Assembly: GCA_043766985.1 (NCBI GenBank)
Contig: JAYUHM010000234.1
Coordinates: 2,494-66,493, forward strand
DNA: 64,000 bases
DNA from: Polaromonas sp.
GTDB lineage: Bacteria; Pseudomonadota; Gammaproteobacteria; Burkholderiales; Burkholderiaceae_C
Direction: 5' to 3'
Part shown: one piece after another, positions 4,146 through 60,592 of the stretch
Layout of the letters: each line of letters starts with the position of its first letter
Numbering within the stretch: the stretch's first letter is position 1
Position numbers and translations under genes: made by a program
Notes under the pieces: model-generated
Told to the model about the DNA's origin: nothing
The model's database searches: none
Seen by the model: only the letters and a program-made list of their open reading frames with translations

Positions 4146-5081
4146 ATGAAGCTACCTTCTGTATTTCGTTTATCTCCCCGGTGGGCGCCTTACGTTTTTC
4201 TTTCTCCTTTTTTAGTCCTGTTTGCAGTGTTTGGCGTATTCCCGCTGTTGTTTTCGCTGTATCTGGCCTTCCAGTCGTGGGAACCGACAAGCGGGCTTGG
4301 TGAGATGAGTTTTGTCGGACTGGATAATTACGCTTTCGCATTGAAAGACGAATGGTTTTGGAAGTCGCTTGGAAATACCGGTTGGCTTGCCCTGACTTCT
4401 GGCTTGCCTCAGCACTTGGTCGCCATTCCGTTGGCATGCTTCATTCATGTGTCGTTCAAACGGTTGCGTAATGGTGTAGTTGGGATTTACTTTATGCCGT
4501 ACATAACCTCAACTGTTGCAATTTCAATTCTTTTTAGCTCGCTGTTTTCTACTGACTTTGGATTGATCAATGCAGGTATAAATGCATTGGCTCAGCTCCC
4601 TGGCATAGGTTGGATTTTTCCGCACGGTCCTGTGGACTGGCTCAACGAGCCTGGCAATATCAAACCGGCTATATCGATAATAGTATTTTGGCGCTATGTT
4701 GGATTTAACGTTGTGCTGTATTTGGCTGCCTTGCAGACCATACCAAACGACATCTATGAGGCCGCCACCATGGATGGGGCTGGCCAGTTTCAGCAGTTTT
4801 GGTACATCACGCTACCAAGTCTAAAACCAATGATTTTCTTTGGCGTGACTCTTAGTGTGATCGGAGGATTGCAGTTATTCGAAGAGCCATTCATCTTGAC
4901 AGGTGGGCGCGGGGGCACCGATCAAGCTGGAATGACAACGGCCATTTATCTTTACCGAACGGCTTTCGACTTCAATGATTTTGGCGCGGCCAGCGCCATG
5001 TCCTGGTTACTATTCATCGTAGTGGCGTTGTTGACTTGGTTGACAAATTTAGCGTTTGCGCCGCGTGGTTCGTCGACCTGA
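4146..5081 (+). CDS. Carbohydrate ABC transporter permease (MalF/UgpA-like)
   Basis: 311-aa polytopic ORF with the EAA-type loop (YEAATMDGAGQFQQFWYITLPSLKP). Confidence 0.85.
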   Translation: MKLPSVFRLSPRWAPYVFLSPFLVLFAVFGVFPLLFSLYLAFQSWEPTSGLGEMSFVGLDNYAFALKDEWFWKSLGNTGWLALTSGLPQHLVAIPLACFIHVSFKRLRNGVVGIYFMPYITSTVAISILFSSLFSTDFGLINAGINALAQLPGIGWIFPHGPVDWLNEPGNIKPAISIIVFWRYVGFNVVLYLAALQTIPNDIYEAATMDGAGQFQQFWYITLPSLKPMIFFGVTLSVIGGLQLFEEPFILTGGRGGTDQAGMTTAIYLYRTAFDFNDFGAASAMSWLLFIVVALLTWLTNLAFAPRGSST

Positions 5082-5098
5082 ATCGAAGAGTTTTGACC

Positions 5099-5929
5099 AT
5101 GACACTACCTACTAATCGCTTAGCTCCTTGGGCGGCTTACTGTGTTGTAGGCGTTGGCGCGCTCATCATGTTGTTACCGTTCTATTTCATGTTTGTGTTT
5201 GCCACGCATTCGCGCACTGAGATATTCAGTCTGCCGCCGCCACTCTTTTTTGGCGACAACCTCGCGGAGAACTTGAAGATACTGACTGATCGGATGCCGT
5301 TCTGGCGCAACCTAGGCTGGAGCCTGTATGTTGCTATCGCTTCTACCGCATTGACATTGTTGTTTTGTTCCTTGGGCGGTTACGCCTTCGCGCTATTTGA
5401 GTTTCGGCACAAAAACGCGCTTTTTGGGCTGGTAATGGGAACCATGCTTTTACCCTCTTTTATGAACATGATCCCGACATTCATGATCATGGATTTACTG
5501 GGCTGGATCGATCAGCCACGCGCACTTTACATACCGGGTGCGGCAAGCGCATTTGGCATTTTTTTAATGCGGCAGTTCATCAGCTCATCCATCCCCAAGG
5601 ATTTGATTGAAGCGGCGCGGATGGACGGTTGTGGCGAGCTGGGAATCTTCTGGAGAATCGTACTTCCCTTGTTGAAGCCTGCGCTGGGCACCCTCGGATT
5701 GATCACATTCATCGCCTCGTGGAACAACTTTATTGGCCCTTTGGTTGTGATGCGTTCGCCTGAAATGTATACGCTACCACTTGCACTGCGCAGCCTGCAA
5801 AGTCCTGTGAATACCGAGTGGGGCGCGCTTATGACGGGCTCAGCCATCGCAACACTGCCTTTGATAGTGCTTTTCATTCTTTCGTCGCGCCAGTTGATTT
5901 CTGGTTTAACGACCGGAGCAGTGAAGTAA
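5099..5929 (+). CDS. Carbohydrate ABC transporter permease (MalG/UgpE-like)
   Basis: EAA loop (IEAARMDGCGELGIFWRIVLPLLKP). The ATG at 5099 (MTLPTNRL...) is preferred over the 5036 track start, which overlaps the upstream gene. Confidence 0.85.
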   Translation: MTLPTNRLAPWAAYCVVGVGALIMLLPFYFMFVFATHSRTEIFSLPPPLFFGDNLAENLKILTDRMPFWRNLGWSLYVAIASTALTLLFCSLGGYAFALFEFRHKNALFGLVMGTMLLPSFMNMIPTFMIMDLLGWIDQPRALYIPGAASAFGIFLMRQFISSSIPKDLIEAARMDGCGELGIFWRIVLPLLKPALGTLGLITFIASWNNFIGPLVVMRSPEMYTLPLALRSLQSPVNTEWGALMTGSAIATLPLIVLFILSSRQLISGLTTGAVK

Positions 5930-7420: not shown

Positions 7421-8482
7421 ATGGGACAGGTTTCACTACGAGGGGTCCGCAAAAGCTACAGCGCGGTAGACGTCATCAAAGGGGTTGATCTAGATGTAGC
7501 TGACGGTGAGTTCATGGTGTTTGTTGGGCCATCTGGCTGCGGCAAATCGACCATGCTGCGCATGATTGCAGGGCTGGAGAGTGTTACTGATGGCGACTTA
7601 CTGATTGATGGAGTGCGCGCCAACGATCTGCGCCCAGCAGATAGAGGCGCGGCAATGGTCTTTCAGAGCTACGCTCTGTATCCGCACATGACGGTAGAAG
7701 AAAATATGGGATTCGCACTGAAAATGGCTGGCGTGCAGCGCTCGCTGCGTGATGAACGGGTCAGACATGCGGCAGACATTCTGAAAATCACCGAACTGCT
7801 CGCACGCTACCCCAAGGAACTGTCGGGGGGACAGCGACAGCGCGTGGCTATAGGCCGCTCCATTGTCAGAAAACCTAAAGTATTTTTGTTTGATGAACCT
7901 TTGTCGAACCTGGATGCGGCATTGCGTGTCAACATGCGTATTGAATTATCGAGACTGCATAAAGAACTCGGTACAACCATGATTTACGTGACGCATGATC
8001 AGGTTGAAGCGATGACTCTGGGCAACCGGATCGCAGTATTTAACAAGGGAATTATTGAACAGTTGGGGCCCCCAATGGCGCTGTACAACCGTCCTGCAAA
8101 TGAGTTTGTAGCCAGCTTTATTGGTGCGCCACGCATCAACCTTATTGCCCGCCCCTCGCCGACGGGTGCAGCGGTACAGCATAAAGCGCTATGGGATGCA
8201 CTTGCCAGCCACCTGCCAGACGGTGCTGCACGTGTTGGCCTGCGTTCCGAAAACTTGCGCGTAGCACCTGCTGGAACGGGCATTGCTGCCAGTGTTGTAA
8301 TGGCTGAACATCTGGGCGACTCGTCAATTATCCATCTGCGTGTGGAGGGGATTACAGATCTTCTTTGTGCAAAGGTGGGAGCCGAACACCACATGATTGA
8401 AGCGGGGGATCAAATTGGCCTGGCTCCAGACGTTGCTTGGGCGCTGGCTTTCAGTGATGACGGTCAGTTAATGGCGAAATAA
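7421..8482 (+). CDS. Sugar ABC transporter ATP-binding protein (MalK/UgpC-like)
   Basis: Walker [10 protein letters not shown], signature LSGGQRQR, Walker B VFLFDEP, plus a C-terminal regulatory domain. The start is 1 nt after the GH1 stop. Confidence 0.9.
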
Positions 8483-49562: not shown

Positions 49563-51368
49563 CTAGGGGAGCTTGAACACATGGACAGCACCACCCTTCG
49601 CGGTGAACTTTGGTAGATCTGCGGTCACGCCAGGAATGCCGAATGCTGCGTAGGGATCGTCTACATCAAGGTTTCCGGACACTACAGCACCCAGCAGGCC
49701 GCCGACACCCGAGTAAACGGCCACACGCTGCTTGCCATCAGGGCCGGTGAAAGTTATCGGGCTGCCGATGATGCCCGATGGCAGCTGCGTTTGGAAAAGC
49801 ACCTTGCCGCTCGTCGCATCCACCGCCTTCAGCCACCGGTCCAACGTGCCGTAGAACACCAGATTACCAGCCGTTGCGAGGACGCCGCTGTACAGTGGGA
49901 AGCGCTCTGGGATGCTCCAAATTTTTGTACCCTTCACGGCATCCCAGGCGATGAGCTCGCCACGAACGCCGCTGGGCCCCGTCTTCATCGTTGTGCTGGC
50001 CCCAACATAGGGCGTGCCCTGGATGTAGTTGACTTTCAGCGGCTCGGTGTCGGCACATACGTCCATGCTGGGAATGTAGAACAGGCCCGTGGAAGGCGAG
50101 AAAGCAGCAGGTTCAATATCTTTGCCTCCCGGAGGTGCGGGGCAGATGTCCTTGGTGACCTCGCCCTCACGGGGGATCTTGGCCGGGTTTAAAACCGGCG
50201 ATCCACTCACCAAGTCGATGCGATCAGCCCAGTTCACCGGAACGAATGGTTTGGCTACCAACACCTCACCTGTTCTGCGGTCCATCGTGTAGGCAAACCC
50301 GTTCTTGTTGAAATGCACGATAAGCTGACGTACCGCGCCATTGAATGGCAGGTCGACCACGATGTTCTCGTTGACGGTGTCGTAGTCCCATGCGTCGTGA
50401 GGTGTCATCTGGTACGCCCAGACGGCTTGGCCCGTATCGGGATTGCGCGCAAAGATGGTCGATGACCATTTGTTGTCACCGGGCCGGATGTCCGGGTTCC
50501 AGGGAGCGGGGTTGGATGTACCTTCAAACAGCAGGTTGAGCTGAGGATCGTAAGTTAACCATCCCCAGCGCGTGCCGCCCCCTTGCGTCCACAATGTGCC
50601 GGGCCATGTCGTCTGGCCCAGATTGGTTCCCCTATCCTTGGCGTAGAAAGGGTGGAAGCCGTTGCCGATCAACACGTCGGCATCCGGGCCGGTACCCCAG
50701 GCGCGCCATACCTCGCGCCCCGTGTCAACGTTCAATGCGGCAAGCCAACCACGCACGCCCAGTTCGGCGCCGCTGTTGCCAACGAACACTTTGTCGCCGA
50801 CCACGAGCGGAGCCATCACCATGGTCTGCCCCGAGCGCGGGTCTCCCAGATTGGTTCGCCACACTTGGCGCCCGGTTGCCGCATCGACGGCAACGGTTGT
50901 GTTGTTAAGCGCGTTGTAGATAATCTTGCCGTTGGCAAAGACGGCACCGCGGTTGACGATATCGCAGCACGCTTGGCCTATCGCGAACTGGTTTGGTGCG
51001 GGACTGAAGACCCAGCGGGTCTGGCCGGGGCGGGTCAGGTCCAGTGCGAACAGCCTGTTGGGAAACGGACCCACGACATACATGGTGTTCCCCACCACCA
51101 GGGGCGCGCCTTGATGCCCCGCCCTGACACCCGTGGTGAACTGGAACTCGTGGGTGATGCCAGCGACATTGCTGGCGTTGATCTGCGAGAGCGAACTGAA
51201 ACGCGTACCTTGGGCAGTTCCCGCGGGCGTTGTCCATTCGGCGCCTGCGGCCTGCGCCCATGCGGGGCCGTGCGGCACTAAGCTGGCCGCGAGCAGCAGC
51301 ATGGGGCCGAGAAGTCTTGCACTGCGAAGACTGGAAAGCAGTTTGAGCGTGATCACATGAGCCTCCAT
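49563..51368 (-). CDS. PQQ-dependent methanol/ethanol-family dehydrogenase, lanthanide-type (XoxF/PedH-like)
   Basis: Eight-bladed propeller repeats, vicinal Cys pair (GQACCDIVNRG) and HDAWDYD with the extra Asp (codons at 50379-50387). Signal peptide follows the ATG at 51368 (or 51380); the track start at 51497 is a spurious extension. Confidence 0.85.
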   Translation of the reverse strand: MEAHVITLKLLSSLRSARLLGPMLLLAASLVPHGPAWAQAAGAEWTTPAGTAQGTRFSSLSQINASNVAGITHEFQFTTGVRAGHQGAPLVVGNTMYVVGPFPNRLFALDLTRPGQTRWVFSPAPNQFAIGQACCDIVNRGAVFANGKIIYNALNNTTVAVDAATGRQVWRTNLGDPRSGQTMVMAPLVVGDKVFVGNSGAELGVRGWLAALNVDTGREVWRAWGTGPDADVLIGNGFHPFYAKDRGTNLGQTTWPGTLWTQGGGTRWGWLTYDPQLNLLFEGTSNPAPWNPDIRPGDNKWSSTIFARNPDTGQAVWAYQMTPHDAWDYDTVNENIVVDLPFNGAVRQLIVHFNKNGFAYTMDRRTGEVLVAKPFVPVNWADRIDLVSGSPVLNPAKIPREGEVTKDICPAPPGGKDIEPAAFSPSTGLFYIPSMDVCADTEPLKVNYIQGTPYVGASTTMKTGPSGVRGELIAWDAVKGTKIWSIPERFPLYSGVLATAGNLVFYGTLDRWLKAVDATSGKVLFQTQLPSGIIGSPITFTGPDGKQRVAVYSGVGGLLGAVVSGNLDVDDPYAAFGIPGVTADLPKFTAKGGAVHVFKLP

Positions 51369-51437
51369 AAAAAACCTCATGCTGCGCCGCTGGCTTCCTG
51401 GGGTATGTGCAGTAACCCACATAATCTGGTAACAGTT

Positions 51438-51482
51438 TGCAAAGAAAAGGAGTGCAAAGAAAGGGAGTGCAAAGACAACTGG
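51438..51482. promoter_or_regulatory. Three tandem 15-bp direct repeats upstream of the PQQ dehydrogenase gene
   Basis: TGCAAAGAAAAGGAG / TGCAAAGAAAGGGAG / TGCAAAGACAACTGG, located 70-115 nt upstream of the start codon. Confidence 0.5.
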
Positions 51483-51547
51483 GGCGGACTTAATCAAACG
51501 AAAGAAAGTAGCGTCAATCTTGCTAGGCGGGCGTAATTTTTACTACG

Positions 51548-51597
51548 AATTAAATAGCTGCTTGTGTAATATTCCATAGGCTCTTCAAACGATTTTT
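51548..51597 (+). repeat. Dispersed repeat, copy G (intergenic)
   Basis: AATTAAATAGCTGCTTGTGTAATATTCCATAGGCTCTTCAAACGATTTTT. Confidence 0.65.
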
Positions 51598-51653
51598 CTT
51601 AACTGAGTGCACTCAGTCATTTCATAGTTACGCAGTCAACTGCCCGACGGGTA

Positions 51654-53645
51654 CTAGACTGTATGCGGCAAAAAAGCAGGCATCGCGCGCAGGCGCTGCA
51701 TCAGGCCATGCTGCAGCGCAAACACCGTCAATTGTTCGGCGTAGGGCACCAGCATCTGGTCGTCTTGCGCCAGGGGCACGCCTAGCAGCTGGGCCATTTG
51801 CTCTTTGGCAATCTGGCCGTGAGCCAGCAGTGCGTCGGTGATGTGCAGCAGCAAGCCGGCATCGGCTTTGAGCAAGGCCTGCGCACGCGCGTACTGCTGC
51901 ACCAGCAAGGCCTCGATTTCGGCATTGGAGGGGACGACATTGGTGTTGATGTCTCCCTCGGTTTCATGCGTTACATCGGTGCGGCTCAGGCGGCTGCCAA
52001 AACCGTAGTAGCGCACATAGCGCGCGGCCAGGGCGGTGGCGCTTTTAAAGTCGCTCTCGCTGCCGGTCGTGCAGGCCCCTTCGTTAAACACCAAGGCTTC
52101 GGCGGCGCGGCCCGCCAGGCTCACGCACATGCGGTCCAGGCAGTTTTGCTGCGACATGGTCTTCATGCGCACGTAGCTGTTGTAGCCGCCCTCAAACGAG
52201 GCCACGTTGATCTTTACCTCTTGCGGCGCGTGCCCAAACAAGCGGCCATACACCAGGCCATGGCCGGCTTCGTGCACCGCCAGCAGAGCCCGAAAGTCCG
52301 GGCTTGCGCGCTGCTTGAGCTGGTTCAGATCCAGCGGCACAGGGTAGGCCGTGCTGTGCGGGCCGCAGCGCACATGCAAGTGCTGGGTGTTAATGTCCAG
52401 CGACACCTGCAGCGTAGAGCCCGCCTCGATGCCGTGCTCCAGTGCCCATAGCACGGCGTTGACCAGGGGCGCGCTCAAAATGGCGTGTACCGACGAGAAC
52501 AGCGGGCGCGTGCCTTGGGCCGGGAAGACGGCGTTGGCATAAATGCCCGCATAGACCGACTCATCCAACGCAAAGCTCAGGCCGGAGCTGGCCTGCACTT
52601 CATGCACATACTTGCCGCAGGCGCTGCGGATCAAGCGCTCATACGTCGCTTGGTTGAGCGAGGGGTAAATCACATGGTTGTTGCCCATGCGCGCTACCTG
52701 CTCAGGTTTGAAGCGCTCGGCCAGGGCTTTTTTGACGTCAATCACCGACAGCTTTTTCGTCATGGCGTGAAAGATATCGGCATCGGTGTCGCAGTCTTCC
52801 ACCCGGCTGGCCATGCCTTGGTACATTTCGTCCAGGTTGCCCGAGACGATGATCAGCAAACGGCTGTAGTCTGTCTCCCAGGCCTCGCTGGAGGCTTTGA
52901 AGGTCAGCATGCGCTCTTGCAGTTGCTCGGCGCTCCAAGCCATCACTTCTTGCAACGGCTCTTTGAGCTTGAGGCTGTGCTTGAACTCTTGCGCCTGGTA
53001 GGGCGAGAGGTTGAATTTGAGTTTTTTGCTTGCCCCGCCTTCTTTGGAGGAATCGTCTTTGTCTTCACGCTCATCGTCGTAGAGCGACATCGCCAAGGAC
53101 GACTCCAGTTCTTGCAGGAACGACAGCGAGGGCGGCAAACGCCCGTCGGACAGCAACTGCCAAACATCCTGGTAGCGCTTGACCGGCGCGTCTTTGCCTT
53201 GCTCGCTCACCGTGCGAAAGCGCTGGAATTCGTCCAGTACCAGCATGCCGGGCTCGCCTTCTTGCACACCAGACTCGCTCAGCATCGCGCTGATCGAGTC
53301 GGCACTGCGCCTGCTGCTGCCGTTGCTAAAGCCGTCCATTTGCACTTCAACAAAGCGGTCATAAAACCCCAGCTTGTGTGCCAGGCTGCGGGTGAGCTGC
53401 GTTTTACCGGTGCCGGTCAGGCCCCACAGGCACACAATCACCGGGCGGTGAATGATGTGCGGCAGCACATACCAGGCGCGGATAGATTCGATCACGCGGT
53501 CAATGATCTCGTCAATACCAAACAGCTCGGTTTTCAGCTCGGCTGCCACGCTGGCCAGGTGGGCGCTGCGCTGGCGCAGCAGCTCGGCTTGCACCATGGG
53601 CATAGCCATAGAGGTCGTATTCAAATCGTTCTTCATGCTAATCAT
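51654..53645 (-). CDS. Soluble AAA+ ATPase (ClpA/B D2-like) fused to an FtsH-type M41 zinc-metallopeptidase domain
   Basis: Walker A GLTGTGKT (53400-53423), Walker B MLVLDEF, Clp-D2-like blocks (LLIIVSGN, RFKPEQVARMGNNHVIYPSL). The C-terminus has HEAGH (52260-52274) and TGSESDFKSATALAARYV, collinear with the FtsH protease domain. No TM segment. Confidence 0.8.
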   Translation of the reverse strand: MISMKNDLNTTSMAMPMVQAELLRQRSAHLASVAAELKTELFGIDEIIDRVIESIRAWYVLPHIIHRPVIVCLWGLTGTGKTQLTRSLAHKLGFYDRFVEVQMDGFSNGSSRRSADSISAMLSESGVQEGEPGMLVLDEFQRFRTVSEQGKDAPVKRYQDVWQLLSDGRLPPSLSFLQELESSLAMSLYDDEREDKDDSSKEGGASKKLKFNLSPYQAQEFKHSLKLKEPLQEVMAWSAEQLQERMLTFKASSEAWETDYSRLLIIVSGNLDEMYQGMASRVEDCDTDADIFHAMTKKLSVIDVKKALAERFKPEQVARMGNNHVIYPSLNQATYERLIRSACGKYVHEVQASSGLSFALDESVYAGIYANAVFPAQGTRPLFSSVHAILSAPLVNAVLWALEHGIEAGSTLQVSLDINTQHLHVRCGPHSTAYPVPLDLNQLKQRASPDFRALLAVHEAGHGLVYGRLFGHAPQEVKINVASFEGGYNSYVRMKTMSQQNCLDRMCVSLAGRAAEALVFNEGACTTGSESDFKSATALAARYVRYYGFGSRLSRTDVTHETEGDINTNVVPSNAEIEALLVQQYARAQALLKADAGLLLHITDALLAHGQIAKEQMAQLLGVPLAQDDQMLVPYAEQLTVFALQHGLMQRLRAMPAFLPHTV

Positions 53646-53880
53646 TCAAAGTGTTCACGGCCTTTTGTAGGGCCATGTGTTCAGCGCGGCGTTGTGCGCC
53701 GCGTGAGCGAATATGCTTGCCCGCGCCAGAGGTGATGGCGCGGTGGGCGAGGGCCTGCACCACGCGGTTGCGCGGGGCAGACAGTTGCAAAGTCAAGGTC
53801 AAGGCCAGCGGCTGTTTGATACTGCGCAGGTGCTTTACTTTGCCTTGCGCAAAGTCACGGGAAAATAGTTTGGCACTCAT
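53638..53880 (-). CDS. Small basic hypothetical protein (80 aa) translationally coupled to the AAA+/M41 gene
   Basis: GGAG lies 8 nt upstream of the ATG. Its stop overlaps the downstream start (AATGATTAG). No family recognised. Confidence 0.55.
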   Translation of the reverse strand: MSAKLFSRDFAQGKVKHLRSIKQPLALTLTLQLSAPRNRVVQALAHRAITSGAGKHIRSRGAQRRAEHMALQKAVNTLND

Positions 53881-53975
53881 GGTGCACGCTCCAGATACAA
53901 AAACCTCAGCAAAGTAAAACAGTCTGGGGCTTGTGGAGCGTGCGTCTCAATAGAACGCGCAGCACCTTGCCGCAA

Positions 53976-54005
53976 AGCTGGTGTGGTGTGGCACCACATC
54001 CAGCT
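53976..54005. other. Stem-loop S1 in the non-coding spacer
   Basis: AGCTGGTGTGGTG-TGG-CACCACATCCAGCT, a 13-bp stem with one bulge. Confidence 0.6.
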
Positions 54006-54060
54006 GGGGGGCAGTGGAGGGTGCGTCAGGTGTGAGTGAAACAAGTCATGGGTTTAATGT

Positions 54061-54110
54061 GCTTTAAGGGTTGGCTGCACAAGGATATTCGTTGTGCAGC
54101 GGCTTAAAGC
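54061..54110. other. Compound stem-loop S2 in the non-coding spacer
   Basis: Outer stem GCTTTAA/TTAAAGC and inner stem GCTGCACAA/TTGTGCAGC around a 9-nt loop. Confidence 0.6.
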
Positions 54111-54281
54111 AGGAAAAGGATTGTGCTGAAGCGCACTCGGTTTGACAAGTATTTTGCGCAGCTTTTTTTCATGGCGTTGTAAAAAAACAATCACAGCAGT
54201 GCCTCACTGATGGGGCGACTGCGGATGCAACCGGAAGTGCCTGAGCCGACCTGTTGCCTGCGAGACCAGGGCAGGGCTGGC

Positions 54282-54355
54282 GCATTCAGCTACGCGGCTG
54301 TCCCCCGTGGTGGCTTATGGCCGCCGACTCCTTGTATGCCGCTACGCTGAATGCA
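54282..54355. other. Long imperfect hairpin S3 in the non-coding spacer
   Basis: GCATTCAGC...CGGC pairs with GCCG...GCTGAATGC (9 bp plus 5 bp around a 3x3 internal loop). It is enclosed by AGGGCAGG (54268-54275) / CCTGCCCT (54403-54410). Confidence 0.5.
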
Positions 54356-54438
54356 GCATCGGCCAGCTCTTGCTGCCATGGCGAGTGCTCCACCGTCGCG
54401 CGCCTGCCCTATTTGCCGCCGTGGCGCTTGGAATGTGA

Positions 54439-54523
54439 GCTATTGGGGTCAGATCAAAATTCAGGAAAGCAATGCCCCCGAAGCGCGCAACCTCGAACGA
54501 AATTTTGCTCTGACCCCAATAGC
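54439..54523. repeat. 85-bp palindromic element with 23-bp inverted-repeat arms (MITE/REP-like)
   Basis: GCTATTGGGGTCAGATCAAAATT (54439-54461) and AATTTTGCTCTGACCCCAATAGC (54501-54523): 22/23 complementary, with a 39-bp centre. Confidence 0.7.
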
Positions 54524-54560
54524 GGACTATCCGGCGACTACTGCTTCTACGCATGCATTC

Positions 54561-54605
54561 AGGCGGTAGCCCAATAAAATACTGCGTAAGCAGCTCCTAA
54601 ATAAG
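54561..54605 (-). repeat. Dispersed repeat, degenerate copy K (just upstream of the chimeric ORF)
   Basis: The minus strand reads CTTATTTAGGAGCTGCTTACGCAGTATTTTATTGGGCTACCGCCT. Confidence 0.5.
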
Positions 54606-54682
54606 TAGTGAATAAATCGCACCACGGATACCATAAACTATCCCCACAACGCAACCGCACCAAGCCCCAACACAGCCCCACC

Positions 54683-55771
54683 ATGAGTTACGTCATCCAC
54701 ATCTGGCAAACCCCCATCCCCACCAGCGTGCTGCAAGCCGACAAAATTTGCGACCGCCTGCAAGACAAAGAGGGGCGGCAAAACCCCAAGTTCATCGAAC
54801 TGGCCAAACGGCTGAGCCAGCGCTATCCCTGTCGCGGCCAAATGACCGGGGACGAAGACGATGAAGAAGGCGTATGGTTGGATGAGCCCTTAGACGGCAT
54901 CAGCCCCAGCCCAGTGCTTGCCCTGGGTATACGCAGCGACTATGTGATAGAGGTGATGCCCTTCGTTGCCGTGACCGCCAATGCACTGGGGCTGACCGTG
55001 TATGACACCCAAGTAGGCGAATGTTACTTACCCAGTGGCCAAGTGCTGACCATGCCAGGACAGGCATCAGTGGGCTTGCAGGAGGAGGTAGACCCTGAGC
55101 TCATTTATTCTTCTGACCAGATTATCAAAATAGCCGCTGAGCACAGTATTGAGTTCTATAAAAAATACGGGTACAAGTATTCTCGTAAAGGCAATTGCTT
55201 TGTGAAAAAGCACGATGGTTTTTATCATTCAATTACATTGCAGGGCGGGGGGGGCGTTGCTGCAAGCCACACCATCTGCATTACAAAAGGATTGCACCTT
55301 GTTTCGCACATAGCAAATCTAAGCTATGTAAAACCTGAGCCTGCGCAGGTGATTGAGCTACGTTATGATCAGGACAATTATCCAAAAACATGGCCCAAAG
55401 TGAATTGCCCTTACCGAGCTGAGCGGGGTGATATTGCGGTGCGTTCAGTGTCTGAAGTTAGGTCTGCCATGGATAAAATAATGGTTTATGAAGAGCAAAC
55501 CTTCATGCCTCTCATGAGTGAAATTCAAACGCTTGAAAGTGTTCATAAGTTTCTGCACAATCCTGCCTTTAAGATATTGTCGAATTCAAGGGTGGTAAAC
55601 TATTATGGGCAATTGCTGATTGCTTATTTGGTAAAACCAGACAATTTGGATGCACTCATTGTCAAAATTCGAGCTTCAATTTCGAAAGACGAAATGCCAC
55701 AAATGGCTCTTTCATTTTTCGACAAAACAGTAGAATTGATCAAACTTGAACTTGCGTCTGCATCGGTCTAG
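54683..55771 (+). CDS. Hypothetical two-domain protein with a sharp internal GC shift
   Basis: The ATG at 54683 (MSYVIHIWQTPIP...) is preferred to the GTG at 54608. The first ~140 codons are GC-rich and the last ~225 codons are about 35-40% GC. The C-terminal KKYGYKYSRKGNCFVKKHDGFYHSITLQ pattern resembles DUF4304-like immunity-type domains, which is a weak call. Confidence 0.55.
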   Translation: MSYVIHIWQTPIPTSVLQADKICDRLQDKEGRQNPKFIELAKRLSQRYPCRGQMTGDEDDEEGVWLDEPLDGISPSPVLALGIRSDYVIEVMPFVAVTANALGLTVYDTQVGECYLPSGQVLTMPGQASVGLQEEVDPELIYSSDQIIKIAAEHSIEFYKKYGYKYSRKGNCFVKKHDGFYHSITLQGGGGVAASHTICITKGLHLVSHIANLSYVKPEPAQVIELRYDQDNYPKTWPKVNCPYRAERGDIAVRSVSEVRSAMDKIMVYEEQTFMPLMSEIQTLESVHKFLHNPAFKILSNSRVVNYYGQLLIAYLVKPDNLDALIVKIRASISKDEMPQMALSFFDKTVELIKLELASASV

Positions 55772-56031
55772 GTAAAGACCGAACGGTAACTATGCTTACT
55801 CTAAAGGCAACCACTCCCCATTTAGTCGGTGACAAGGTCTCCGTCAGCAAATGCTCGCCCTTGGGTGTGATGCGCCTGACCAACTGCTTGAGCTCTACAA
55901 TGCCTTGCAGCGATTTGGCATCACAAAACGCAAGCACATCCCGCGCTGGCAGTGCCACGATGGCTCCGTTAGGTGAGTGCGGTGTCTGGTCGCAGAAGGG
56001 TATGACGAGCAGGAGCTTGCCCGGGTCGTTT
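55740..56031 (-). pseudogene. Possible 3'-terminal gene remnant
   Basis: A 97-codon open frame lacks an ATG (only an internal GTG at 55958) and reads ...LLLVIPFCDQTPHSPNGAIVALPARDVLAFCDAKSLQGIVELKQLVRRITPKGEHLL.... It has no RBS and no recognised family. Confidence 0.25.
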
Positions 56032-56052
56032 TACTTCTGCACAATAGGGCTT

Positions 56053-56625
56053 ATGACAAACGCGCCTCAAAATACCACTCCGGGCGATTACCTCGTGTGG
56101 GAAAACGAGCAAGCCGAGCGGCATGAATTTTACCGTGGCGAGGTTTTTGCCATGACGGGGGCGCGGCGGGCGCACGGCGAGGTGGTTGGCAATGTGTTTG
56201 CCGCCCTCAAGCGGCAGCTCAAAGGGACACCATGCCGGGTGTATTTGGAGGGCATGAAGGTGCGTGTGGCCGACGACGCTATTTTTTACCCGGACGTGTT
56301 TGTGACCTGCGATGCCCAAGACTTGCGCACCGAGATGATTTTCACTGCACCCACCCTTGTGGTGGAAGTGCTTTCACCGTCCACTGCCGGGTTCGACCAA
56401 GGCTTGAAGTTCACGCAATACCGCCGTATTGCCAGTCTGAAAGAGTACGTGTTGGTATCTCCAGATGGGCAGCGTGTTGAGGTGTATCGGCGCAATGCAG
56501 AGGGTTTGTTTGTGCTGCATGACTACACCGCCGGGCCCAGTTTGCTGCTGGCCAGCGTGGAGGCCGAGATTTCCCTACAAGACCTTTTTGAGGGAGTTGA
56601 TCCGGATCGACGGTCAGCGTCCTAA
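56053..56625 (+). CDS. Uma2-family (DUF820) endonuclease
   Basis: Typical Uma2 pattern: Y..WE......EF..GEV..M.G....H ... PDVFV ... P.LVVEVLSPST...D...K...Y......EY.LV. The ATG at 56053 is preferred to the track start at 55792. Confidence 0.8.
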   Translation: MTNAPQNTTPGDYLVWENEQAERHEFYRGEVFAMTGARRAHGEVVGNVFAALKRQLKGTPCRVYLEGMKVRVADDAIFYPDVFVTCDAQDLRTEMIFTAPTLVVEVLSPSTAGFDQGLKFTQYRRIASLKEYVLVSPDGQRVEVYRRNAEGLFVLHDYTAGPSLLLASVEAEISLQDLFEGVDPDRRSAS

Positions 56626-56695
56626 TTCAAGAACCTTGGGGCGTGTCCAAATAGGACACGGCGATTAGCGATAATCACGGGTTGCCCCACGCCCC

Positions 56696-59600
56696 ATGCT
56701 AGACATTACCTTCCCCGAATCCCTGCCCGTATCCGCTCGCCGTGACGAGATTGCCACCGCTATCCGAGACCACCAAGTGGTGATTGTGTGTGGCGAGACG
56801 GGGTCGGGCAAGACCACACAGTTGCCCAAGATTGCTTTGGCTTTAGGCCGCGGCAAATTGAATTACCCGCCTGGAAGGGGCAAGCTGATTGGCCACACCC
56901 AGCCGCGCCGCATTGCTGCTACCTCGGTGGCCAAGCGGATTGCGGAGGAACTGAAGACACCGCTGGGCGATGTGGTGGGCTACAAGGTGCGCTTCCAGGA
57001 CCGGCTCTCGCGGGACGCGTCTGTCAAGCTGATGACCGACGGTATTTTGCTGGCCGAGACGCAGGGCGACCCGGATTTGAAGGCGTACGACACGCTGATC
57101 ATTGACGAGGCGCATGAGCGGTCTTTGAACATTGACTTTCTGCTAGGGTATTTGAAGCAGTTGTTGCCGCGCAGGCCAGACCTCAAAATCATCGTGACCT
57201 CGGCCACCATTGATGCGGATCGGTTTGCCCGGCATTTTGAATCCAGGAATGGCCCGGCTCCGGTCATCATGGTCAGTGGCCGCATGTTCCCGGTGGAGCA
57301 GCGCTACAGGCCGTTTGAAGAATCGCGTGACTACGATTTGAACTGTGCGATAGCCGACGCAACCGATGAGCTGTGGATGGGCGGCGGTGGCGGCGACATC
57401 CTGGTCTTTCTCCCCGGCGAGCGCGAAATCCGTGAGGCAGCCGACCATTTGCGCAAGCACCTGGCGCACCAGCCATTGCACCGCAATGCGGATGTGATCC
57501 CGCTGTTTGCGCGGCTTAGTCAGCAAGAGCAAGACCGCGTGTTCGAAGTGGGCAACGGCAAACGTATCGTGCTGTCTACCAATGTGGCCGAAACTTCGCT
57601 CACGGTGCCGGGTATCCGCTACGTGATTGACGCAGGCACAGCGCGCGTGAAGCGCTATAGTTTCAGGAATAAAGTAGAGCAGCTGCTGGTCGAGCCAATT
57701 GCGCAGGCGGCCGCTAACCAGCGCTCGGGCCGGTGCGGGCGGGTGGCGGATGGTATTTGCATTCGCCTGTATGAGCAGAAAGACTTTGACGCACGGCCTA
57801 AATTTACCGACCCGGAGATTCTGCGTTCATCGCTAGCCGGCGTGATCTTGCGCATGAAGGCGCTGCGCCTGGGCCATGTGGAAGACTTCCCCTTTATCGA
57901 GCCCCCGCAGCGCCGCGCCATTGCCGATGGCTATGACCTGCTGCAAGAGCTGGGCGCGGTGGACGAGTACAACGAGCTGACCGCCCTGGGCGCGGAGCTA
58001 TCGCGCCTGCCGCTAGACCCGCGGGTGGGCCGCATGATCATCGAGGCACGCAGCCGCAATGCGCTGGACGAGGTGCTGATCATCGCCAGCGCGCTGAGCG
58101 TGCAAGATGTGCGCGACCGCCCGATGGAGGCGCAGCAGCAGGCCGATGAAGCGCACAAGAAGTTTGACGATGAGAAGAGTGAATTTACCGGCTACCTGAA
58201 GCTGTGGAAATGGATCAACGCAGCGCGGGGTGGCGACGGCAAAGAGCACAAACTCAGCAACCGCCAATACGAACAACTCCTACGCCAAAACTTCGTCAAT
58301 ATCCGCCGCGTGCGCGAATGGCGCGATATTTATTCGCAGTTGCACACCGTCGTCACCGAACACAAATGGCAGCTCAATTCTCAGCCTGCGAGTTACGAGC
58401 AACTGCACCTGTCCATGCTGGCAGGCCTGCTGGGCAACATCGGCTGGAAGCTGGAAGACGAAGACGTGTATCTGGGCGCGCGGGCGATCAAGTTTTACCG
58501 CCATCCGGGGGCGAATCTGAGCAAAAAGCCGGGCCGCTGGATTGTGGCGGCTGAGCTGGTGGATACGTCGCGCCTCTTTGGAAGGGGCATCGCCGCGATA
58601 GAGCCGCAGTGGATTGAACAAGTAGCCGGCCACCTTTTAAAGAAGCAATTGCTCGACCCGCATTGGGAAAAGAAGAGCGCCGAGGTCATCGCGCTGGAGC
58701 GCGCCACGCTGTACGGCATCGTCATCTACAGTGGCCGCCGCGTCAACTACAGCAAGGTAGACCCCGTGGCCGCGCGCGAGGTGTTTATCCGCGAAGCGCT
58801 GGTAGGCAACGAGTGGGAGACCAAGCTGCCCTTCCTGGCGCAGAACGAAAAACTGCTCAAACAGGTGGAAGACATCGAGCACAAATCGCGCCGCCAAGAC
58901 GTGCTGGTAGATGACGAGCTGATCTTTGCCTACTACGACCAGCAGATTCCTGCCGTGGTGTGCAGTGGCTATCTGCTGGAGCAGTGGTACCGCGAGGAGA
59001 GCAAAAAGAACCCCAAGCTCTTGATGCTCACCCGCGAAGAGCTGATGCGCCACGAGGCCGCTGGCATTACCACCCAGGCCTTTCCCAAAGTGGTGCGTTT
59101 GGGCGGCGTAGACTGCCGCGCCACCTACCTGCACGAGCCGGGCGATGCCAAAGACGGCCTGACGGTGGAGGTGCCACTGTTTGCGCTGAACCAGGTTCAT
59201 GATGAGCGCTGCGAATGGCTGGTGCCCGGCATGCTGCAAGGCAAAATTTTTGCGTTGATTAAAAGCCTGCACCAGAGGCCCCGCTCGCGCCTGGTGCCAC
59301 TGCCCGACAGCGCGGCGCGTTTCTACGCGGTGCTCAGTGAGCCAACGGCCTTTGGTGCCAGCGGTTTGGTAGATGCGCTGCTCAAGCTGTGCCGCGATGC
59401 CACTGCCGTAGACATCAAGCGCGGCGACTTCAAGCTGGACATGCTGCCGCCCCATTTGTTCATGAACTTCAGAGTGGTAGACGAGCATGGCCGCCAGATG
59501 GGCACGGGGCGCAACCTGGCCGCGCTCAAAGCCGAGCTGGGTGTGCAGGCGCGCGGTGCATTTGCATCGCTGGCGGCTCTGTCTAGTGCGGCCAGCAAAG

Positions 59601-60592
59601 TGCCTAAGGTACTTCTTGATGATGACAATAACCAGCCAAATCAGCCGCAAGCCCAACAGGATATAGCACAAGCTGCTATTAAACATGTAGCAAATGCTAA
59701 TACCCCTGCGTTTCAAGCGGATGCGCGCTACACCGCCTGGACGTTTGGCGAGCTGCCCGAGCTGCTGGAGATCTCTCGCCAATCGGGGCGCGGTGCCAAC
59801 GCCCAAGTGCAAACCTTGATCGGTTTTCCGGCGCTGATAGACCATGGCGATGCCGTGAGCGTAGAAGTGTTTGACGAGCCCGACGTAGCCGCTGCCAAAC
59901 ACCGCGCTGGCCTGCGCCGCCTGTTTGCCTTGCAGATCAAAGACGCGCTCAAATACCTGGAAAAAAATATCCCCGATCTGCAAAAAATGAGCGTCGCTTA
60001 CATGCCGCTCGGCACCAGCGAGGAGCTGAAAAGCCAGATCATTGACGTAGCGCTGGACAAAGCCTTCTTGTTGGACCCGCTGCCAACCAACGCCGACGAC
60101 TTCAAACGCCGCGTCGACGAAGGCCGTGGCCGCCTGACCTTGATAGCCAACGAAGTGGCACGTTTGTGCGGCACTATTTTGACGGAATATGCCGCCGCGG
60201 CCCGCAAGATCAAAGACACCAAAAACGCCCCCGAGGCCACGGCGGACGCGGCCCAGCAGCTGCAGCGCCTGATGCCCAAGCGCTTTTTGACGGCTACTAC
60301 CTTCATCCAGCTGCAGCACTTCCCGCGCTACCTGAAAGCCATCACCCTGCGCCTGGAAAAACACCGCACCGACCCCGTACGCGATGCTTTGCGCCTGAGT
60401 GAGCTAAGACCCCAAGAGCAGCGTTTTGTCCGTCTGCTGGCTGAACGCAAAGGTGTGCTGGATGTTCGCTTGGCCGAGCTGCGCTGGTTGCTGGAAGAGC
60501 TGCGTGTCAGCTTTTTCGCCCAAGAGTTGCGTACGCCGCAGCCTGTCAGCACCAAGCGGCTGGATAAGGTGTGGGCGCAGTTGATGCAGTGA
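56696..60592 (+). CDS. hrpA: ATP-dependent RNA helicase HrpA
   Basis: 1298-aa DEAH-box helicase (GETGSGKTTQ, DEAHERS, SATID, TNVAETSLT, QRSGRCGR) with HA2/OB and HrpA C-terminal regions. It carries an AT-rich in-frame insertion at about 59607-59705. Confidence 0.95.
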   Translation: MLDITFPESLPVSARRDEIATAIRDHQVVIVCGETGSGKTTQLPKIALALGRGKLNYPPGRGKLIGHTQPRRIAATSVAKRIAEELKTPLGDVVGYKVRFQDRLSRDASVKLMTDGILLAETQGDPDLKAYDTLIIDEAHERSLNIDFLLGYLKQLLPRRPDLKIIVTSATIDADRFARHFESRNGPAPVIMVSGRMFPVEQRYRPFEESRDYDLNCAIADATDELWMGGGGGDILVFLPGEREIREAADHLRKHLAHQPLHRNADVIPLFARLSQQEQDRVFEVGNGKRIVLSTNVAETSLTVPGIRYVIDAGTARVKRYSFRNKVEQLLVEPIAQAAANQRSGRCGRVADGICIRLYEQKDFDARPKFTDPEILRSSLAGVILRMKALRLGHVEDFPFIEPPQRRAIADGYDLLQELGAVDEYNELTALGAELSRLPLDPRVGRMIIEARSRNALDEVLIIASALSVQDVRDRPMEAQQQADEAHKKFDDEKSEFTGYLKLWKWINAARGGDGKEHKLSNRQYEQLLRQNFVNIRRVREWRDIYSQLHTVVTEHKWQLNSQPASYEQLHLSMLAGLLGNIGWKLEDEDVYLGARAIKFYRHPGANLSKKPGRWIVAAELVDTSRLFGRGIAAIEPQWIEQVAGHLLKKQLLDPHWEKKSAEVIALERATLYGIVIYSGRRVNYSKVDPVAAREVFIREALVGNEWETKLPFLAQNEKLLKQVEDIEHKSRRQDVLVDDELIFAYYDQQIPAVVCSGYLLEQWYREESKKNPKLLMLTREELMRHEAAGITTQAFPKVVRLGGVDCRATYLHEPGDAKDGLTVEVPLFALNQVHDERCEWLVPGMLQGKIFALIKSLHQRPRSRLVPLPDSAARFYAVLSEPTAFGASGLVDALLKLCRDATAVDIKRGDFKLDMLPPHLFMNFRVVDEHGRQMGTGRNLAALKAELGVQARGAFASLAALSSAASKVPKVLLDDDNNQPNQPQAQQDIAQAAIKHVANANTPAFQADARYTAWTFGELPELLEISRQSGRGANAQVQTLIGFPALIDHGDAVSVEVFDEPDVAAAKHRAGLRRLFALQIKDALKYLEKNIPDLQKMSVAYMPLGTSEELKSQIIDVALDKAFLLDPLPTNADDFKRRVDEGRGRLTLIANEVARLCGTILTEYAAAARKIKDTKNAPEATADAAQQLQRLMPKRFLTATTFIQLQHFPRYLKAITLRLEKHRTDPVRDALRLSELRPQEQRFVRLLAERKGVLDVRLAELRWLLEELRVSFFAQELRTPQPVSTKRLDKVWAQLMQ
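59635..59686 (-). repeat. Dispersed repeat, copy H (inside hrpA)
   Basis: The minus strand reads TTTAATAGCAGCTTGTGCTATATCCTGTTGGGCTTGCGGCTGATTTGGC. It is 33/35 identical to copy F (59644-59678 versus 41701-41735) and is read on the gene strand as QPQAQQDIAQAAIKH. Confidence 0.85.

Follow-up and report, generated by a model that had tools for sequence, protein, structure and literature searches.

Background

Five machines, ClpXP, ClpAP/CP, HslUV, Lon and FtsH, make up the usual account of energy-dependent proteolysis in bacteria. Small proteins are encoded beside, or act on, such enzymes: clpS lies directly upstream of clpA, and lambda CIII and SpoVM are small-protein modulators of FtsH. The locus described here lies in a 64,000-nucleotide (nt) stretch of DNA from Polaromonas sp. 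(contig JAYUHM010000234.1, assembly GCA_043766985.1), the whole of which is referred to as the window. It consists of an open reading frame (ORF) for an 80-residue basic protein and, directly downstream, a large ORF for a 663-residue AAA+ metalloprotease. The protease belongs to a family that merges a Clp-type motor and the FtsH protease, parts of two of the five machines, in one soluble chain, and the gene pair is preceded by a conserved leader. The pairing of motor and protease and the regulatory leader are the new elements.

An earlier note, made from the sequence alone, had recognized both genes and likened the pair to defence or toxin-antitoxin modules. A small ORF and an ATPase-protease beside a genomic island make this a tempting misreading, which is corrected here. 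For specialists, the surprise lies in the family and its distribution; the statements on function are all computational.

Results

Domain structure of the protease

In the large protein, which is soluble, a ClpB-D2-like AAA+ module is fused to a complete, catalytically intact M41 domain (Table 1). The Pfam family Peptidase_M41 (PF01434) matched residues 451-620 over positions 7-191 of its 191-position model (E 9e-21, 75 bits against a gathering score of 29.9), and in a sequence search of the PDB the same part of the chain was matched to the FtsH protease domain (E 1.6e-12, alignment with T. thermophilus FtsH). An NCBIfam model of FtsH aligned through its C-terminal part with residues 448-616. 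The assignment as an M41 domain follows from the full-length PF01434 match above the gathering score, together with the HExxH motif and an aspartate as third zinc ligand. These residues, HEAGH 458-462 (H458, E459 and H462) and D532, which sits in a TTGSESD motif, were invariant among relatives down to 30% identity.

The N-terminal part of the chain was matched to the second nucleotide-binding domain (NBD2) of ClpB in the PDB search (E 9e-5), and partial NCBIfam matches to the D2 modules of ClpA, ClpB and ClpV covered residues 20-94 and approximately 301-417. It has an AAA_2-like core, sensor-1, an arginine finger, the sensor-2 motif GxRP and a D2-small lid, which identify it as a Clp/Hsp100 D2-type module, and more distant relatives carry precomputed matches to PF07724 (AAA_2) and PF10431 (ClpB_D2-small). 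The residues of the ATPase that were invariant down to 30% identity were those of Walker A from G75 to T82 (G75, K81 and T82), D138 and E139 of Walker B, N270 (sensor-1), R319 (arginine finger) and R380 (sensor-2). The generic Pfam AAA family (PF00004) matched the P-loop half only (residues 71-153, model positions 1-79 of 131, E 1.7e-7), and a classical-clade AAA domain, recognized by a full-length PF00004 match and a second region of homology, was not found in the 663-residue protein. The NCBIfam equivalogs for ClpA, ClpB and ClpV scored 25-40 bits against cut-offs of 885-1232, the protein having a single ATPase module, not two rings. Similarly, the FtsH models TIGR01241 and PRK10733 scored 65.8 bits against a cut-off of 600 and 27 bits against 1008, respectively, with the protease part alone aligning.

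An AlphaFold2 model built with 42 family members as input had a predicted local distance difference test score (pLDDT) of 82.7 and a predicted template modelling score (pTM) of 0.74. A Foldseek search with this model returned full-length FtsH cytosolic regions and ClpB NBD2, with TM-scores relative to the target of 0.64-0.71. The charged insert, placed after Walker B and put at roughly 100 residues in the earlier note, measured about 90; it lies between the LLSDG helix and the sensor-1 strand, contains 17 Asp or Glu and 11 Lys or Arg residues, is variable and gap-rich in alignments, and was modelled as short helices with a pLDDT of 50-79. A beta-rich linker of about 40 residues occupies residues 404-440. 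No transmembrane segment or FtsH-type two-helix anchor was found, the highest 19-residue Kyte-Doolittle mean (1.52) falling within the AAA lid, and the AlphaFold model has no N-terminal hydrophobic helices.

The architecture proposed in the earlier note was therefore borne out, with its ORF coordinates and lengths matching the ORF list exactly. The fusion of a Clp-D2-like AAA+ module to a complete M41 domain was recovered by Pfam, NCBIfam, the PDB search, the model and the invariant catalytic residues, and the claimed absence of an anchor agreed with the hydropathy maximum. The profile searches that it had proposed gave the full M41 domain in the window protein and AAA_2 and ClpB_D2-small as precomputed matches on relatives.

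Two other sources were consulted for the large protein and set aside. A fold search of BFVD returned nothing beyond generic FtsH-like proteins of giant viruses and ClpA-like proteins of phages (11-17% identity), and the PHROGs matches were partial, to an 'ATP-dependent protease' family and to an unknown family.

Distribution of the protease family

An exhaustive HMMER search of 1.84 billion cluster representatives (E <= 1e-30) gave 875 clusters at 50% identity, and nearly all of the listed matches were 600-720 residues long and aligned over their full length. The family is already deposited and automatically annotated, without a name beyond 'AAA family ATPase'; the source names were that one, 'cell division protease FtsH' and 'hypothetical' only, and none of the cluster names of its distant members was informative. 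When cellular genomes were surveyed with one genome per species, the best 80 loci were all from Burkholderiales, and included Polaromonas, Rhodoferax, Variovorax, Acidovorax, Delftia, Comamonas and Ottowia, as well as Xenophilus, Roseateles, Mitsuaria, Ideonella, Aquabacterium and Methylibium.

The IMG/VR collection held 171 protease loci, many of them on contigs of 200-550 kilobases (kb) and one on a giant-virus metagenome-assembled genome. Outside the Burkholderiales clade, the contexts that could be read were mostly viral or phage-like. One relative shares a 379-kb contig with genes for a T4-type portal and Acb1, a second is accompanied by genes for NAD salvage, a dCMP deaminase and a T4 RNA ligase, a third by a clamp loader and part of a DNA polymerase III alpha subunit, and a Tara contig combines a relative with an HNH endonuclease and a nucleoside deoxyribosyltransferase; the exception was one bacterial-looking context with LpxC nearby. 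GenBank (cultured) phages and the PLSDB plasmids gave matches at the level of the M41 domain only and no full-length family member. The jumbo phage MIJ3 has been reported to carry an FtsH-like gene (PMC6892783), which was not among the phage matches, so there was no sign that it belongs to the family.

In a distance tree of the family, all 83 of the 83 Burkholderiales sequences fell in one clade, which also held two GC-rich IMG/VR contigs (L119 and L121; loci are designated by L-numbers), and the sister of this clade consisted of phage-like contigs. The pair is inherited vertically across Comamonadaceae and Sphaerotilaceae (Burkholderiales), and the Burkholderiales copy is best read as a chromosomal branch of a family that otherwise occurs mostly in very large phages. 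The two IMG/VR contigs also hold an IHF-beta-like gene and ORFs that by eye resemble phage structural genes (L121, positions 1145-2331 and 4820-5299), and may represent a prophage edge or a misclassified bacterial contig.

The gene pair and the small basic protein

The two ORFs form a true two-gene operon. The small ORF, which ends in TAG, overlaps the large ORF by 8 nt, counted from the first ATG of the latter (junction AATGATTAGCATG), and a second ATG of the large ORF lies 1 nt past the small-ORF stop. GGAG or GGAA was present at the position of the small-ORF ribosome-binding site in every aligned locus, and the large ORF, as read from its sequence, has no Shine-Dalgarno sequence of its own. 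Across 57 loci the distance between stop and start ranged from the 8-nt overlap to a gap of at most 30 nt, the commonest arrangement being the overlap seen in the window. The earlier note's description of a basic ORF that has its own GGAG and overlaps the protease start accordingly held, and the tight junction proved to be conserved.

The 80-residue protein has an isoelectric point (pI) of 12.0, with 15 Lys or Arg against 3 Asp or Glu residues. Its relatives form 54 clusters at 90% identity, in which 16-17 residues are invariant (MSA, S7-R8, K16, P24 and A53-G54-x-H56-x-R58-xx-G61-A62-x-R64-R65-A66). The conserved motifs read MSAKxFSR...KQP...PRNPV..AL..R...GAGKHIRSxGAQRRA, with about 15 variable residues after the last block, and the pairwise dN/dS ratios were 0.22-0.33. 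The clusters, the invariant residues and the dN/dS ratios indicate that the small ORF is under purifying selection and is a true gene rather than a chance ORF. No relative was found in Pfam, including a scan of 24 members, in NCBIfam, PADLOC or PHROGs, or by a profile search of the PDB. The AlphaFold model consisted of four helices of low confidence (pLDDT 65.8, pTM 0.29), which fits a peptide that would fold only on a partner.

A resemblance noticed by eye (N-x-V-x-x-A-L...G-x-G-K-H-x-R) had suggested ArfA (PF03889). This was rejected, as hhalign gave a probability of 0.2% and there was no PDB or Pfam profile match. Separately, one metagenome-assembled genome (L014, positions 2367-2861) has a second small ORF, frameshifted, some 1 kb ahead of the intact copy; it is a pseudogene left by duplication or else an artefact of assembly.

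As a rule the two genes occur together, but either can be found without the other. The small ORF stood directly upstream of the protease gene in 59 of the 82 Burkholderiales genome loci, and a divergent small ORF precedes the protease gene in L119 and L121; it was found in none of the 85 viral or other loci. It was missing from all 15 Variovorax loci and from a few other loci, which include a sub-clade (L010, L013 and L016) that has neither the small ORF nor the leader. In the reverse direction, a profile of the small protein retrieved 62 metagenomic loci, in 40-41 of which the protease gene was directly downstream; a few ran off the contig, and about 15 had an intact small ORF and no protease gene at the syntenic place. 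In three of these small-only loci (L192, L201 and L225) the next gene reads by eye, from its N-terminal sequence, as N-acetylglutamate synthase, and in Variovorax the protease gene is followed by one that encodes AA_kinase and acetyltransferase domains. The protease gene was therefore apparently deleted in place. The co-occurrence that the earlier note had proposed to check is the rule among the genome loci, but fails in Variovorax and in the small-only metagenomic loci. That note had also held that its reading would fail if homologues proved to stand in a conserved context without the small ORF. This is largely what was seen, in that the context is conserved and some loci are without the small ORF, although the small ORF is itself conserved.

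Loci without the small ORF have upstream elements of their own. In L010, L013 and L016 a conserved element, ATG(T)GCGACACnnnTTGACGCA, lies about 60-100 nt upstream of the protease gene. Variovorax has no attenuator, and instead has a conserved upstream ORF (uORF) of about 30 codons, MTSFLAP...GGVKATRPA* (L001, positions 5721-5813, with equivalents in L017, L025 and L036), ahead of the protease gene. The start of this peptide resembles the Acidovorax leader peptides, so that the leader appears to have been remodelled.

The leader

The 150-250 nt upstream of the small ORF, which the earlier note had passed over, were conserved at the DNA level across genera. A promoter-like TTGnCA-N17-CAnAAT was found at the equivalent place in other genera. 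Downstream of it, at least 50 of 61 loci gave a uORF of 7-11 codons in a pattern search. The stop codon of the uORF lies 12-17 nt upstream of an invariant CCCCGGC anchor, and the differences in length are whole codons. Most loci have TGA as the stop, in the context UGA-C or UGA-A; Rhodoferax and loci related to it use TAA, and a single locus has TAG. The encoded peptides are hydrophobic, aromatic and rich in Ser and Thr (for example MTLFTHT, MLFLTFT, MFVPLFAPA, MSAFYTAPV, MSSLFISTID and MSYLFNTFL).

The uORF is followed by a region of mutually exclusive helices. The first switch helix starts 1-2 nt past the uORF stop codon and is formed by segments 1 and 2 (Table 1). It has 7 base pairs, three of which show compensatory changes (54-80, 56-78 and 57-77); pair 54-80 is GC in 14, AU in 7 and UA in 1 of the sequences, and pair 57-77 is CG in 13 and UA in 13. 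According to RNAalifold, segment 2 can alternatively close a longer hairpin, GGCUG...CAGCC. When the segment helix and the terminator were considered together, 94% of cells paired and 6 of 15 pairs were compensated, which none of 500 shuffles reached, and controls in which the pairing was slid gave 21-53%.

The intrinsic terminator lies between the promoter and the small ORF and ends about 7 nt before the small-ORF GGAG. In a second alignment, which was used for the terminator and antiterminator tests and included the small-only loci, 92.5% of the terminator cells paired, with 4 compensated pairs, and again none of 500 shuffles reached this. The antiterminator, formed by the anchor and the 3' arm of the terminator, paired in 98.1% of cells and had a covariation score above all 500 shuffles. 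Two of its pairs were compensated, C-G to G-C in L200 and L218, and G-C to A-U in L003. The anchor and the 5' arm of the terminator are thus same-sense competitors for one strand, which is the logic of an attenuator. The leader contains the parts by which attenuators are recognized, a short uORF upstream of an intrinsic terminator between promoter and gene, and a covarying, exclusive antiterminator. A duplex swap test was supportive but not clean, with -15.8 kcal/mol for cognate, -12.1 for non-cognate and -10.3 for shuffled arms.

With a simple pattern, the leader was recognized ahead of the small ORF at 54 of 60 genome loci, and the strictness of the pattern visibly accounts for several of the six loci missed, including that of the window. 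The same pattern was present in 11 of the 15 small-only loci, preceded the protease gene alone once (L076), and was found in none of the 85 viral or other loci. No Rfam family matched positions 51000-57000 of the window at E <= 1, and none reached its gathering threshold in the leaders of 14 other loci. The conservation and covariation of its sequence suggest that the leader is a previously undescribed candidate cis-regulatory RNA.

Two further observations concern the leader. Its 5' untranslated region (UTR) contains a hairpin with compensatory changes in the stem and a loop that by eye is conserved in Polaromonas, Rhodoferax, Xenophilus, Ottowia and Comamonas. The loop reads AACGA(A/G)nnnCCUU in the window and at the equivalent place in L002, L004, L035, L058, L076, L079 and L082, and the Sphaerotilaceae have the version GGCGCC...ACGA...GGCGCC; the hairpin may be a binding site for a protein or an RNA. 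The small-only locus L192 has an attenuator that is wired in another way. Some 150 nt ahead of its small ORF, a single GACCCUGG stands between two copies of CCCAGGGUC in the same sense, and it is the 5' arm of the terminator, not the 3' arm, that would be competed for; the switch principle is kept with other sequences.

Neighbouring genes

The helicase gene hrpA is the divergent neighbour of the operon in 35 loci from Variovorax, Acidovorax, Xenophilus and Paracidovorax, and also in the window. This adjacency is limited to one sub-clade and is absent from Rhodoferax and from the Sphaerotilaceae and other loci that were examined, which have unrelated neighbours. No conserved neighbour other than hrpA was found in the Albitalea, Ideonella, Polaromonas, Ottowia and Comamonas loci that were scanned.

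In the window, a low-GC ORF and a Uma2-family gene are wedged between hrpA and the operon. Both are lineage-specific insertions. The low-GC ORF had no match in Pfam, NCBIfam, PADLOC or PHROGs, was absent from every related locus and is probably horizontally acquired cargo. The Uma2 gene is the sole defence-like gene of the region and was not present in the other loci; its Pfam match starts at residue 99, so that translation probably begins at an internal start. In Acidovorax kalamii the same junction is occupied by another insertion, a 644-residue ORF that reads by eye as a serine hydrolase. The 'variable island' in which the earlier note had placed the pair is therefore an insertion beside a conserved operon and not the home of the operon, which is conserved elsewhere without these two genes.

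Between the operon promoter and the low-GC ORF, at positions 54430-54532, lies a 32-nt inverted repeat that is 84% complementary, with its arms 39 nt apart (GGAATGTGAGCTATTGGGGTCAGATCAAAATT and AATTTTGCTCTGACCCCAATAGCGGACTATCC); it looks like an element of the repetitive extragenic palindromic (REP) or miniature inverted-repeat transposable element (MITE) type, or the end of the insertion. Unrelated to the present finding, a tandem glycine riboswitch (RF00504, 33.7 and 50.7 bits) was found downstream of the operon in one metagenome-assembled genome (L043, positions 7732-7938).

Table 1. Coordinates of the operon, its leader and the adjacent genes in the window, counted from the first nucleotide
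Feature	Position	Strand	Basis or remark
Putative sigma-70-like promoter, TTGTCA-17-CACAAT	54120..54148	-	consensus scan
5' UTR hairpin, CTGCACA/TGTGCAG, loop ACGA...CCTT	54075..54099	-	read from sequence
Leader uORF, MTCFTHT*, 7 codons and TGA	54026..54049	-	pattern search across loci
Switch region	53976..54025	-	covariation and RNAalifold
Switch segment 1	54024-54015	-	immediately after the uORF stop
Anchor, CCCCCCAGCT	54011-54002	-	complementary to the 3' arm of the terminator
Switch segment 2	54002-53991	-	pairs with segment 1
Hairpin 2	~54006-53976	-	outer stem predicted by RNAalifold
Intrinsic terminator, AAGCCCCAG...CTGAGG and T-run	53899..53932	-	RNAalifold, covariation; T-run 53903-53899
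GGAG ribosome-binding site of the small ORF	53889..53892	-	9 nt upstream of the ATG, from sequence
Small ORF, 80-residue basic protein	53638..53880	-	ORF list, clusters, invariant residues, dN/dS
Large ORF, 663-residue soluble AAA+/M41 protease	51654..53645	-	ORF list, domain matches, model, fold search
Clp/Hsp100-D2-type AAA+ module, residues ~20-420	52386..53588	-	partial NCBIfam matches, ClpB NBD2 in PDB and Foldseek searches, invariant columns
Charged insert of ~90 residues, residues ~170-258	52872..53138	-	gap-rich alignment region, pLDDT, composition
M41 zinc-metalloprotease domain, residues 447-628	51762..52307	-	PF01434, T. thermophilus FtsH alignment, invariant residues
Low-GC ORF, 387 residues	54608-55771	+	GC ~0.45 against ~0.58-0.60 in the flanks
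Uma2-family putative endonuclease	55792-56625	+	Pfam; PADLOC candidate PDC-S03, E 7e-31
hrpA	56696-60592		divergent from the operon

Discussion

The reading that we favour, and for which we judge the chances to be evenly balanced, is that the locus is a package of a translation-sensing attenuator, a basic protein and a cytosolic FtsH-like AAA+ metalloprotease whose biochemical function is predicted. The operon would be read from a sigma-70-type promoter through the leader, with its uORF and exclusive helices, into the gene for the 80-residue protein and the translationally coupled protease gene, the large gene presumably being translated by coupling to the small one. The behaviour of ribosomes on the uORF would set the extent of transcription past the terminator. 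Since the uORF stop abuts the first switch helix, we propose that both proteins are made when translation of the leader is perturbed, and the inducing condition might be a translation or proteotoxic stress. The protease would work like FtsH without a membrane anchor, with a hexameric ring of the Clp/Hsp100-D2 type that may feed unfolded cytosolic polypeptides into a hexameric M41 chamber for ATP-dependent degradation. Because the leader accompanies the small ORF, the small protein appears to be the primary cargo of the switch, and because it is kept with the leader where the protease gene is lost, it presumably has a function of its own. It probably binds nucleic acid, ribosomes or acidic partners, and in most lineages it would be made in fixed proportion with the protease and would act in the same response, as a client, adaptor or regulator.

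Several observations weigh against this reading, 1) the uORF peptides vary by clade and have no obvious regulatory run of codons, 2) the window uORF is without a clear Shine-Dalgarno sequence, which is weak in its clade and GGAG in others, 3) the terminator stem of the window has a mismatch and is weaker than those of its relatives, 4) equilibrium folds with a masked ribosome footprint gave no consistent switch, some clades always folding into the terminator and others always into the antiterminator, 5) the Clp pore-1 motif GYVG is absent, the corresponding loop (residues 103-117) reading MDGFSNGSSRRSADS with a pLDDT below 50, 6) an aromatic residue in the pore loop is partly conserved, F106 in 89 of 150 sequences and Tyr or Trp at position 112 in 80 of 150, the window protein having F106 and an arginine at 112, 7) either gene can exist alone, and the evidence for a direct physical or functional link between the two proteins is the operon structure, 8) the family tree is a quick neighbour-joining distance tree without support values and 9) a search of the open-access literature that covered soluble or cytosolic FtsH and M41 proteins in huge phages found no study of the family.

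The foremost alternative, which we consider unlikely, is that the 80-residue protein serves the protease only, either as an adaptor or activator in the manner of ClpS or as a competitive inhibitor and substrate in the manner of CIII or SpoVM, with its positive charge docked on the acidic insert of the AAA+ module. Such a dedicated partnership would explain the conserved tight junction and the large gene without its own Shine-Dalgarno sequence, the pI of 12 would complement the charge of the insert, and the small protein has no confident fold, as might be expected of a peptide that folds on binding. However, about 15 metagenomic loci retain the small ORF and the leader with no protease gene at the syntenic place, and the acidic insert is also present in Variovorax and in all of the viral relatives, which have no small ORF.

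A second alternative takes the ribosome as the target. Stalling on the uORF would induce a basic protein that binds stalled ribosomes or the 50S-peptidyl-tRNA complex, while the soluble AAA+ protease extracts and degrades nascent chains in cooperation with the neighbouring HrpA. A leader-peptide attenuator does make the ribosome the sensor, most of the uORFs end in UGA, the 80-residue protein is extremely basic and hrpA is divergent in 35 loci; moreover, in E. coli collided ribosomes are split by HrpA (PMC11419001), and what becomes of the 50S-peptidyl-tRNA that this leaves has been described as unclear (bioRxiv 10.64898/2026.04.23.720132). We nevertheless hold this to be improbable. The small protein resembles neither ArfA (hhalign 0.2%) nor the solved ribosome factors or Pfam families, the hrpA adjacency, being confined to one sub-clade, counts as a single ancestral arrangement, and leader-peptide attenuators also govern many functions that have nothing to do with the ribosome. 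An even more doubtful elaboration takes the operon as a new module of translation stress or ribosome quality control. The uORF, mostly with a UGA stop, would report slow or stalled ribosomes, read-through would yield a basic protein that binds ribosomes or RNA, and a protease recruited from a family met mostly in very large phages would clear the products of stalled translation, downstream of the neighbouring HrpA.

That the pair is a defence or toxin-antitoxin system of a variable island, as the earlier note had suggested, was not supported by the comparison; in such a reading the protease would be an abortive-infection effector or would control a toxic small protein, and we regard it as very improbable. 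The abundance of relatives in phage genomes, the insertion hotspot with its Uma2 gene (PDC-S03, E 7e-31) that adjoins the locus and the pairing of a small basic partner with an ATPase-protease are what the idea would account for. Yet in PADLOC-DB 2.0 the large protein gave only weak matches in the P-loop region (PDC-M37B, E 9e-6; DolB, E 6e-5; residues 20-113), which we treat as P-loop noise, and the small protein gave none. All 83 of the 83 Burkholderiales sequences fall in one clade, and plasmids and cultured phages yielded no full-length homologue. The obligate co-occurrence and patchy, mobile distribution of toxin-antitoxin pairs were not seen. Either gene can be lost alone, and genes that are separable in this way are not what is expected of an addictive pair. 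In addition, the ORF inserted at the Acidovorax kalamii junction reads by eye as a serine hydrolase and not as a defence gene.

The last alternative, that the 80-codon ORF is an arrest peptide of the SecM/MifM type relieved by the pull of the downstream unfoldase in a feedback on the protease, would suit an upstream ORF that overlaps the start of the gene for a pulling machine and has a conserved C-proximal GAGKHIRSxGAQRRA in addition to the N-terminal MSAKxFSR, but it fits poorly and is the least probable of the four, since about 15 variable residues follow the conserved motif, no structure sequesters the downstream start where the ORFs simply overlap, the small ORF persists without the protease gene, and its full-length conservation is more than arrest peptides usually need.

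Returning to the attenuator-controlled protease and basic protein, the family is abundant, with hundreds of clusters at 50% identity, a wide chromosomal clade in Burkholderiales and many very large phages. If active, it would be a cytosolic M41 protease whose substrates in phage infection and in bacterial stress are directly testable. The leader, as a candidate for a new cis-regulatory RNA with a tiny uORF that would tie expression to the behaviour of ribosomes, offers an experimental handle on the signal to which the operon responds.

Among known systems, the membrane-bound M41 AAA proteases (FtsH, YME1 and AFG3L2) are similar in having AAA+ and then M41 in one chain, with HExxH and the downstream Asp. 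The AGRAAE-type helix is conserved and the whole model of the 663-residue protein superposes on the cytosolic regions of FtsH. The protein differs from FtsH in that it is without the N-terminal transmembrane and periplasmic region, its ATPase is of the Clp/Hsp100 D2 type and not a classical AAA with a second region of homology, and it adds the charged insert of about 90 residues and the beta-rich linker of about 40, scoring far below the TIGR01241 cut-off. With the D2 modules of ClpB, ClpA, ClpC and ClpV, of which Torsin is a distant cousin, it shares a helix before Walker A, the SGN of sensor-1, the RFxPEQxxR arginine finger, the GTRP of sensor-2 and a D2-small-like lid. We take its LLSDG to be the counterpart of the Clp LDDG. 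Unlike these proteins, it has one ATPase ring and no N-domain, D1, M-domain or GYVG, and it has the protease in the same chain, so that docking to ClpP would be unneeded.

The small protein finds its counterparts by analogy. ClpS, whose gene stands before clpA, and the FtsH modulators CIII and SpoVM similarly lie upstream of, or act on, an AAA+ protease, but no relation of sequence or fold connects them with the 80-residue protein, whose gene also occurs without the protease. ArfA is likewise small and basic, with a G-x-G-K/S-H/Y-x-R patch that is similar by eye, a relation that hhalign rejects. The leader resembles the trpL, pheL, ermCL and cat leaders in that a short uORF, alternative helices and an intrinsic terminator separate the promoter from the first gene, and differs from them in a uORF of 7-11 codons that varies by clade and has no run of a single amino acid.

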